Below, piece after piece: positions 18,001-21,000 of a stretch of DNA of 64,000 nucleotides (the stretch's first letter is position 1; each line of letters opens with the position of its first letter). The position numbers were made by a program. Source of the stretch: Escherichia coli (GTDB lineage Bacteria > Pseudomonadota > Gammaproteobacteria > Enterobacterales > Enterobacteriaceae); the NCBI RefSeq assembly GCF_051903065.1, contig NZ_CP178438.1; one strand, written 5' to 3'.

Positions 18001-21000
18001 GCGACCACGATGCACTCTTCCGCCATCCCGCCATCAACGCTGTATCCGGCATTTTTAACTGAACGGCAGAGCGTTTCGTTACCACTGTTACAGTATTCGC
18101 AATGACCGCATCCTTCGTAGAACCACGCCACGCTGGCACGATCGCCTGGTTTTAATGAGGTGACACCTGGACCCACTTCTGCCACCACACCAATCCCTTC
18201 ATGGCCCAGAATTACGCCGGTTTTGTCACCAAAATCGCCATTCTTAACATGAAGATCGGTATGACATACACCACAACACTCCATTTTCAGCAGGGCTTCG
18301 CCATGTTTCAGTGAGCGCAGTGTTTTATCCGTAACGTCAACATGATGAGCCTTCATAGTTCCTCCTTTTCGGATGATGTTCTGCATAGCAGGTGAGGCAA
18401 ATGAGATTTATTCGCCACTACCCAGTATGGATGAGATCTGAAAAAGGGAGAGGGAAATTGCCCGGTAGCCTTCACTACCGGGCGCAGGCTTAGATGGAGG
18501 TACGGCGGTAGTCGCGGTATTCGGCTTGCCAGAAATTATCGTCAATGGCCTGTTGCAGGGCTTCGGCAGAGGTTTTCACCGCCACGCCTTGCTGCTGCGC
18601 CATTTTGCCAACCGCAAACGCAATTGCGCGGGAGACTTTCTGAATATCTTTCAGTTCCGGCAGTACCATACCTTCGCCGTTCAGCACCAATGGTGAATAC
18701 TGCGCCAGCGTTTCACTTGCCGACATCAGCATCTCATCGGTGATACGTGACGCGCCGGAAGCAATAACCCCCAGGCCGATGCCCGGGAAAATAAAGGCGT
18801 TGTTACACTGGGCGATAGGGTAGATTTTATCTTTCCATACCACTGGATTAAACGGGCTGCCAGTGGCGACCAGCGCGTTACCTTCAGTCCAGGCGATAAT
18901 GTCCTGCGGTGTGGCTTCCACGCGTGACGTCGGGTTAGACAGCGGCATCACGATCGGACGCGGACAGTGTTTATGCATCTCACGGATGATCTCTTCCGTA
19001 AACAGCCCGGTCTGTCCTGAGACGCCAATCAGAATATCTGGTTTTACATTGCGCACCACATCCAGCAGTGACAGCACATCGCTGTCGGTATCCCAGTCAC
19101 TGAGGTTTTCGCGCTTCTGCACCAGTTTGGTCTGGAAAGGCAGCAGGTTCGGCATCTTGTCGGTCAGCAGGCCAAAGCGATCGACCATAAAGACTTTCTG
19201 CCGTGCTGCTTCCTCGCTTAATCCTTCACGCTGGGTCTGGGCGATGATCATTTCGGCAATGCCGCATCCCGCTGAACCTGCGCCAAGGAAGACGATTTTT
19301 TTCTCGCTTAACTGACCACCTGCCGCGCGGCTTGCTGCGATCAGTGTGCCGACTGTTACCGCCGCAGTGCCCTGAATGTCATCGTTAAAGGAACAAATTT
19401 CATTGCGATAGCGGTTAAGTAACGGCATCGCATTTTTTTGTGCGAAGTCTTCAAACTGCAACAGCACGTCCGGCCAGCGTTGTTTCACAGCCTGGATAAA
19501 TTCATCAACGAATTCATAGTATTCGTCGTCTGTGATACGCGGATTACGCCAGCCCATATACAGCGGATCGTTAAGCAGCTGTTGGTTGTTGGTGCCGACA
19601 TCCAGCACCACCGGAAGGGTATACGCCGGGCTGATGCCGCCACAGGCGGTATAGAGCGACAGTTTACCGATCGGAATGCCCATCCCGCCGATGCCCTGGT
19701 CACCAAGCCCCAGAATACGTTCACCGTCAGTCACCACAATCACTTTGATATTATGGTTTGGTACGTTTTGCAGAATATCGTCCATATTGTGGCGGTTCTG
19801 GTAAGAGATAAACACGCCGCGTGAACGGCGGTAGATCTCAGAAAAACGCTCACAGGCTGCGCCGACGGTTGGGGTATAAATAACAGGCATCATCTCATCA
19901 AGATGATTGTTTACCAGACGGTAGAAGAGGGTTTCGTTGGTGTCCTGGATGTTACGCAGGTAGATGTGTTTGTCGATTTCGGTTTTGAATCCCTGATACT
20001 GGATCCATGCTCGTTCCGCTTGTTCTTCGATGGTTTCGACCACTTCCGGCAGTAACCCCAGCAGGTTGAAGTTACGGCGTTCTTCCATGCTGAAGGCACT
20101 GCCTTTATTCAACAACGGAAATTCCAGCAGTACAGGGCCAGCGTAAGGGATATAAAGCGAACGCTGTTTTTTTGTTTTTGGTTCCATGTCACTCACTCTT
20201 TTTTGAATATCCATCCCTGGGGGCTTTTATCGTCTTTGCTTTACCGCCAGGGCGTCGGCCCCAAGTATAAAGCAGATAAAAACAAAAACACCATTGCGCA
20301 GGCAATGGTGTTTAATCGTCATTGAGGACTGATGGTTATGAATTACTTTTCAGCGGGGCGTTTTCTGCCGGTTGGGTTATTTACCACGCTGGATTTGTCA
20401 CCTTCGGTAACTATTTTGCGCTGGTTAGAAATTTTATGGTCCAGTCCAAGAATATGACGTGCCTGACGGTTCGATTTCATTTTAACTCCTCAATCCTGTT
20501 GCTAGTTTTAAGGACAACATCGCCGTAGCGAAGAAACACGTGCTAAACCCCTAAATTAGGTTGCCGATCAAGCATAGCACCTTAAAGCGTAGGGTGCTGG
20601 CCACTGACCACATAATTGATCGTTTGCTGGTAGATATCACTGAGGATGTCGTTATCAGAAGCTTCCACCCATTTGGTCAACTCCATGAGAATATCATCTT
20701 CAGTGACAACACCATGCTCTGCCCGAAGGCCTTGCTCAATGGCATTAACCAGAGCGGGTTCTGCTGTTGAATTTTCTGCCTGATAATAAGTAAACATAGT
20801 GATTCTCCGTGTCTGTGTATTTATAGTGTCTGCTACGGATCGCAGATTTATAAAGCACATTCAGCATGGCAAATATTTGCCGCTTCGTTGTTAAGATTAG
20901 TCCTGGTTGATGATTTTTATATTTTAACCCCATGATATTGATAGGTATTATTATTGTGGTGAGTTGATTGATATTGATGCAATATCTCTTGAGATATATA

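Follow-up and report, generated by a model that had tools for sequence, protein, structure and literature searches.

The sra gene of Escherichia coli in a 64-kb chromosomal window, and a 60-residue display floor that conceals it

Small genes are easily lost when open reading frames are displayed above a fixed length. The locus described here, on contig NZ_CP178438.1 of the Escherichia coli assembly GCF_051903065.1, raises the question of which of two overlapping frames on opposite strands is a gene: a short one that falls below a display floor of 60 residues, or a longer one that clears it. The window, to which all coordinates refer, is the whole stretch of DNA analysed, 64,000 nucleotides in length. 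A first-pass annotation, made from the sequence, had assigned the short frame to the complete 45-residue protein Sra and had noted that the display hides it. The two competing frames are as follows.

20343..20480, minus strand: sra, placed by translation, PF08136, NF007473, RefSeq, identity with K-12 and dN/dS
20322-20528, plus strand: antisense frame of 68 residues, TTG-initiated, the sole frame shown over sra at the 60-residue floor

Identity and conservation of the 45-codon frame

Translation of 20343-20480 on the minus strand yielded a full frame from ATG to TAA, 45 codons and a stop, and thereby the peptide that the first-pass annotation had named; had another product appeared, the assignment would have fallen. 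The length of the frame is in itself no evidence, because 52 open reading frames of at least 20 residues overlap the 3 kb around it; what counts is the match to curated families. The Pfam model PF08136 (SRA_like, 'Ribosome hibernation factor SRA') matched residues 1-44 of the 45 with 108.2 bits (E 2.6e-31, cut-off 25), and the NCBIfam equivalog NF007473 matched with 74.5 bits (cut-off 35). Both curated profiles thus place the protein in the Sra / SRA_like family above their cut-offs, and at E <= 0.01 no Pfam family besides SRA_like was matched. RefSeq carries sra at exactly 20343-20480 in a genome with 100% identity across an 801-bp query (20100-20900). The same query locates the locus in 5412 of the 5426 complete E. 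coli genomes.

The Sra protein of K-12 MG1655 (b1480, NP_415997.1), also of 45 residues, is identical to that of the window. The two genes are one synonymous base apart in the coding sequence and one base apart in the leader, and b1480 has the same neighbours (maeA, bdm and osmC), the same Shine-Dalgarno sequence and the same terminator. Around sra, K-12 and the window share approximately 98-99% identity, the window differing by an IS1 element in ydeP and by a deletion affecting ydeN and ydeM. Taken together, 20343-20480 on the minus strand is almost certainly the ordinary chromosomal sra gene of E. coli, coding for a strongly basic peptide of 45 residues. At this locus sra is an already known gene that is concealed only by the 60-residue display floor, as had been claimed. 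Its biological weight here is small, the gene having been described since 2001 and being annotated in RefSeq here, K-12 included.

A search of 5.8 billion proteins returned 66 relatives of Sra. Those with a named organism all belong to Escherichia, Shigella, Salmonella, Citrobacter or Intestinirhabdus; identity declines to 64% in the most distant relative. When 15 sequences were aligned, the invariant residues were M1-H9, L11, G12, S18-Q20, K22, G38 and R39, while the middle of the protein and its extreme C-terminus are variable. The window protein has all 16 columns that are invariant among 15 SRA_like members. It also carries the hallmarks of the family, which are a length of about 44-48 residues, a basic composition, a conserved N-terminus that includes ISNQ, and a C-terminal GRKR. 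A preprint traces the origin of Sra to within the Enterobacteriaceae, with de novo birth as the probable route, and describes rapid evolution: 44% substitutions separate the Klebsiella and E. coli proteins.

Seven orthologous loci were compared with the window. Salmonella, Citrobacter freundii and Intestinirhabdus keep the order osmC / bdm-sra-maeA; in C. amalonaticus bdm is missing from the arrangement (osmC/sra-maeA), two further loci keep only part of the arrangement (sra-maeA, or osmC/sra), and one metagenomic locus keeps none of it. The window gene occupies the orthologous position, with bdm/osmC upstream of it and maeA downstream. Against these seven orthologues the dN/dS of the sra frame ranges from 0.10 to 0.54 (Nei-Gojobori), and on these ratios the reading frame shows purifying selection.

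Sra and the ribosome

The K-12 protein, which is identical to that of the window, is reported to be tightly bound to the 30S subunit and to be induced in stationary phase. Its expression has been ascribed to RpoS and ppGpp, with induction on entry into stationary phase, when the number of copies per cell rises from about 640 to 5851. CsrA represses sra indirectly during growth, a fusion of the sra leader being unaffected by CsrA. Deletion of sra has little phenotype save for a higher antibiotic sensitivity under HipA expression (a persistence phenotype). The arrival of Sra on ribosomes and its departure from them parallel those of RMF.

The ribosome modulation factor RMF, a hibernation factor of E. 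coli with 55 residues, is a close point of comparison. It is like Sra in being small, basic, induced in stationary phase and bound to the 30S subunit, with the same timing; the literature treats the two as separate families. The binding site of RMF and its role in the formation of 100S dimers are established, whereas Sra has no solved structure. An established hibernation factor would have a solved structure with a defined ribosomal site at which mRNA or tRNA binding is blocked, and for Sra no PDB chain was matched at E <= 0.01. Because of this, and because a review of 2026 calls its structure and function unclear, 'hibernation factor' is a putative functional label for Sra.

AlphaFold2, run on the 15-sequence alignment, returned a model of low confidence (mean pLDDT 68, pTM 0.28), and the short N-terminal helices and the beta-hairpin predicted in it are unreliable. 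Such a model would fit a peptide that folds solely on its target. We infer that Sra may fold only on the ribosome, and that it would contact rRNA through its first 22 residues, which hardly vary, and through the GRKR motif of its C-terminus. Sra would then act as an accessory, RMF-linked factor of hibernation or protection that binds the 30S subunit and comes and goes with RMF, and it would probably not be a structural protein of the ribosome. The window brings nothing new on the molecular role of Sra on the ribosome.

The contrary reading, that Sra is a true structural ribosomal protein (S22, the name it first received) and not a conditional factor of the hibernation type, draws on the name '30S ribosomal subunit S22', which persists in some database entries. 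We consider it very improbable. Homologues were recovered from genera of Enterobacteriaceae only, the preprint proposes an origin within that family, and the sequence diverges rapidly, as the Klebsiella comparison above illustrates. Furthermore, Sra has many fewer copies than ribosomal proteins during growth and becomes more abundant in stationary phase, and the gene is dispensable.

Antisense frame, expression signals and leader of sra

Codon usage is known to leave open frames on the strand opposite a genuine gene. The proposal that the plus-strand frame is the real feature of the locus and the 45-codon frame a product of chance is extremely improbable. In its favour, the antisense frame is the longer of the two, is the one that a 60-residue floor displays and is open for 55-78 codons in five of seven orthologous loci. 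Against it, the frame starts with TTG, matches nothing in Pfam up to E <= 1, is interrupted in the other two loci, the most distant ones, where it is shortened to 37 codons, and is annotated neither in RefSeq nor in K-12. Two curated models of Sra, by contrast, are matched by the sense frame, which has a strong Shine-Dalgarno sequence and is under purifying selection. The 68-residue frame was rejected as a shadow ORF on account of its lack of a family match and its disruption in distant loci. As a point of calibration, the 60-residue floor conceals real genes and at this locus displays a meaningless antisense frame instead of sra.

The gene order of the window is narZ...fdnGHI...adhP-maeA-sra-bdm/osmC-ddp-dos-gad...ydeP...hipBA. 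The gene that precedes sra and the two signals that enclose its reading frame are listed here.

20582..20797, minus strand: bdm, 71 residues, upstream of sra (PF10684, 173.8 bits; NF008515, 173.9 bits; RefSeq)
20486..20491, minus strand: Shine-Dalgarno sequence GAGGAG of sra, 5 nt upstream of the ATG, read from the sequence
20276..20313, minus strand: intrinsic terminator of sra, found by terminator scan, with a 12-bp stem, a 4-nt loop and then a T-rich tail

The duplex of the Shine-Dalgarno sequence with the anti-Shine-Dalgarno sequence was calculated at -8.8 kcal/mol, the best value among the ATG-initiated intergenic frames of at least 20 residues in the window, and its AGGAG core is invariant across eight orthologous loci. 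The terminator lies thirty bases past the stop codon. It folds with -20.1 kcal/mol (z = -4.3), a stability equalled by none of 200 shuffled sequences, and compensatory double changes occur at seven of the 11 consensus pairs of its stem among eight orthologues across genera. Downstream of sra lies maeA, with an annotated start at 20187, which the list of open reading frames extends to 574 residues from an upstream ATG. With its strong Shine-Dalgarno sequence and its Rho-independent terminator, and with bdm and maeA on either side, sra is an intact translatable unit.

According to the literature, bdm is co-transcribed with sra by read-through from the bdm promoter, and sra also has a promoter of its own. 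Upstream of sra, a scan with the sigma-70 consensus yielded no promoter on the minus strand. Two further elements were delimited in this region by comparison of the orthologous loci.

20571..20579, minus strand: candidate sra-proximal -10 element TGCTATGCT, just past the stop codon of bdm, proposed from conservation only
20481..20525, minus strand: conserved 5' leader of sra, in which UCCUUAA can pair with UUGAGGA of the Shine-Dalgarno region

The element TGCTATGCT, which the sigma-70 scan did not call, consists of TATGCT with an upstream C and is sigma-S-like. It is kept as TGCTATGCT or as TGCTAAGCT in five of eight orthologous loci, and we propose it as a candidate -10 element of an sra-proximal promoter.

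Across genera the 45 nt before the ATG of sra have hardly changed, in contrast to the synonymous sites of the coding sequence, which have diverged (dS 0.36-0.94). Among eight orthologous loci there is next to no nucleotide variation in the AGGAG core, the ATG or the eight codons that open the frame. RNAalifold predicted a UCCUUAA:UUGAGGA helix in the leader, in which the changes are one-sided and pair-preserving only. The Shine-Dalgarno hairpin by itself folds with -8.2 kcal/mol. An undescribed translational switch, in which this hairpin would be opened by a small RNA, a protein or changed conditions, is conceivable and, in our estimate, rather unlikely. It is kept as a lead only, because the full 101-nt leader folds no better than its shuffled versions (z = +0.28) and because the z-score of the Shine-Dalgarno hairpin is marginal (z = -1.5). 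If real, such a switch would add to the known transcriptional control by restricting the synthesis of Sra to stationary phase.

When the entire window was scanned with Rfam at gathering thresholds, no RNA family was found at or near sra. Separately, a small leader hairpin with compensatory changes (UUCGC...GCGAA / UCCGC...GCGGA / UCCA...UGGA) was observed within 20481-20566 on the minus strand; its folding energies are unremarkable.

Other small genes and strain-specific features of the window

The first-pass annotation had warned that further genes of fewer than 60 residues could be missed in the window in the same way, and it had found no second convincing case. The curated K-12 annotation of the homologous region lists two more small genes, yddY (b4746) and yneP (b4747), whose products have both been detected as tagged proteins in K-12 (VanOrsdel et al. 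2018, PMC6001520). Both have counterparts in the window.

31695-31736, minus strand: yddY, 13 residues, upstream of dosC, intact and identical to K-12 b4746
44075-44200, plus strand: homologue of yneP, 41 residues (Pfam PF23696, 89 bits)

The yddY gene is reported to be induced by low Mg2+ via PhoQP. In K-12, yneP codes for 40 residues and lies between yddA and ydeM. Compared with K-12 YneP, the product of the window differs at several residues of its C-terminal half and has its last codons replaced because the junction of an adjacent deletion falls within the gene.

A small-ORF scan scored by ribosome-binding site, the check that the first-pass annotation had suggested, was carried out over about 8.4 kb of intergenic DNA with an energy threshold of -6 kcal/mol. 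It ranked sra first among the ATG-initiated frames of at least 20 residues. The score of yddY was moderate (-6.2 kcal/mol), and yneP fell under the -6 threshold and was missed. Like Sra, YddY and YneP are shorter than 60 residues and are hidden from the ORF track of this window; unlike Sra, they have weaker Shine-Dalgarno signals. In view of the moderate score of one and the omission of the other, the sequence alone would not have revealed them. The judgement that there is no second case was thus reasonable for a reading of the sequence, and it is incomplete as a statement on the window, in which yddY and yneP are present. Three small genes with annotation or experimental support (sra, yddY and yneP) therefore occur in one window of 64 kb, and sequence signals by themselves suffice to recognise only one of the three.

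The other high scorers of the scan were unconvincing, being either short TTG- or GTG-initiated frames or frames inside an unmasked autotransporter gene at the end of the window.

The deletion at yneP measures approximately 2.3 kb, with its junction at 44189/44190; the 3' part of ydeN and the whole of ydeM, which K-12 and most E. coli carry, have been removed by it. What is left of ydeN is a truncated frame of 201 residues (44135-44740, minus strand). The junction is rare, occurring in just two of 5426 complete E. coli genomes, those of strains 23CRST027 and 23CRST031. The acid-resistance gene ydeP is split in its 3' part by a complete IS1 element of 768 bp with the insA/insB frames, located at 46555-47322. 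A 9-bp target duplication, CCATGCGGC, borders the element on both sides, at 46546-46554 and 47323-47331, and the exact IS1/ydeP junction, searched as a single match, was absent from the complete E. coli genomes of the collection.

Three further observations concern regions remote from sra. The only Rfam match of the window is a bacterial SECIS element (RF01989, 84.3 bits) at 12697-12755 on the plus strand, within fdnG, where the selenocysteine codon of formate dehydrogenase-N would lead one to expect it. Between narU and yddG, a segment that is absent or rearranged in K-12 (7960-10459) contains additional LRR-protein genes as well as an ompC-like porin gene. Finally, 53041-56910, likewise absent or rearranged in K-12, carries an intact fimbrial usher gene and fimA-like genes, where K-12 has a truncated ydeT and the pseudogene yneL; both this region and the segment 7960-10459 are present in strain Res13-Sevr-PER07-33.
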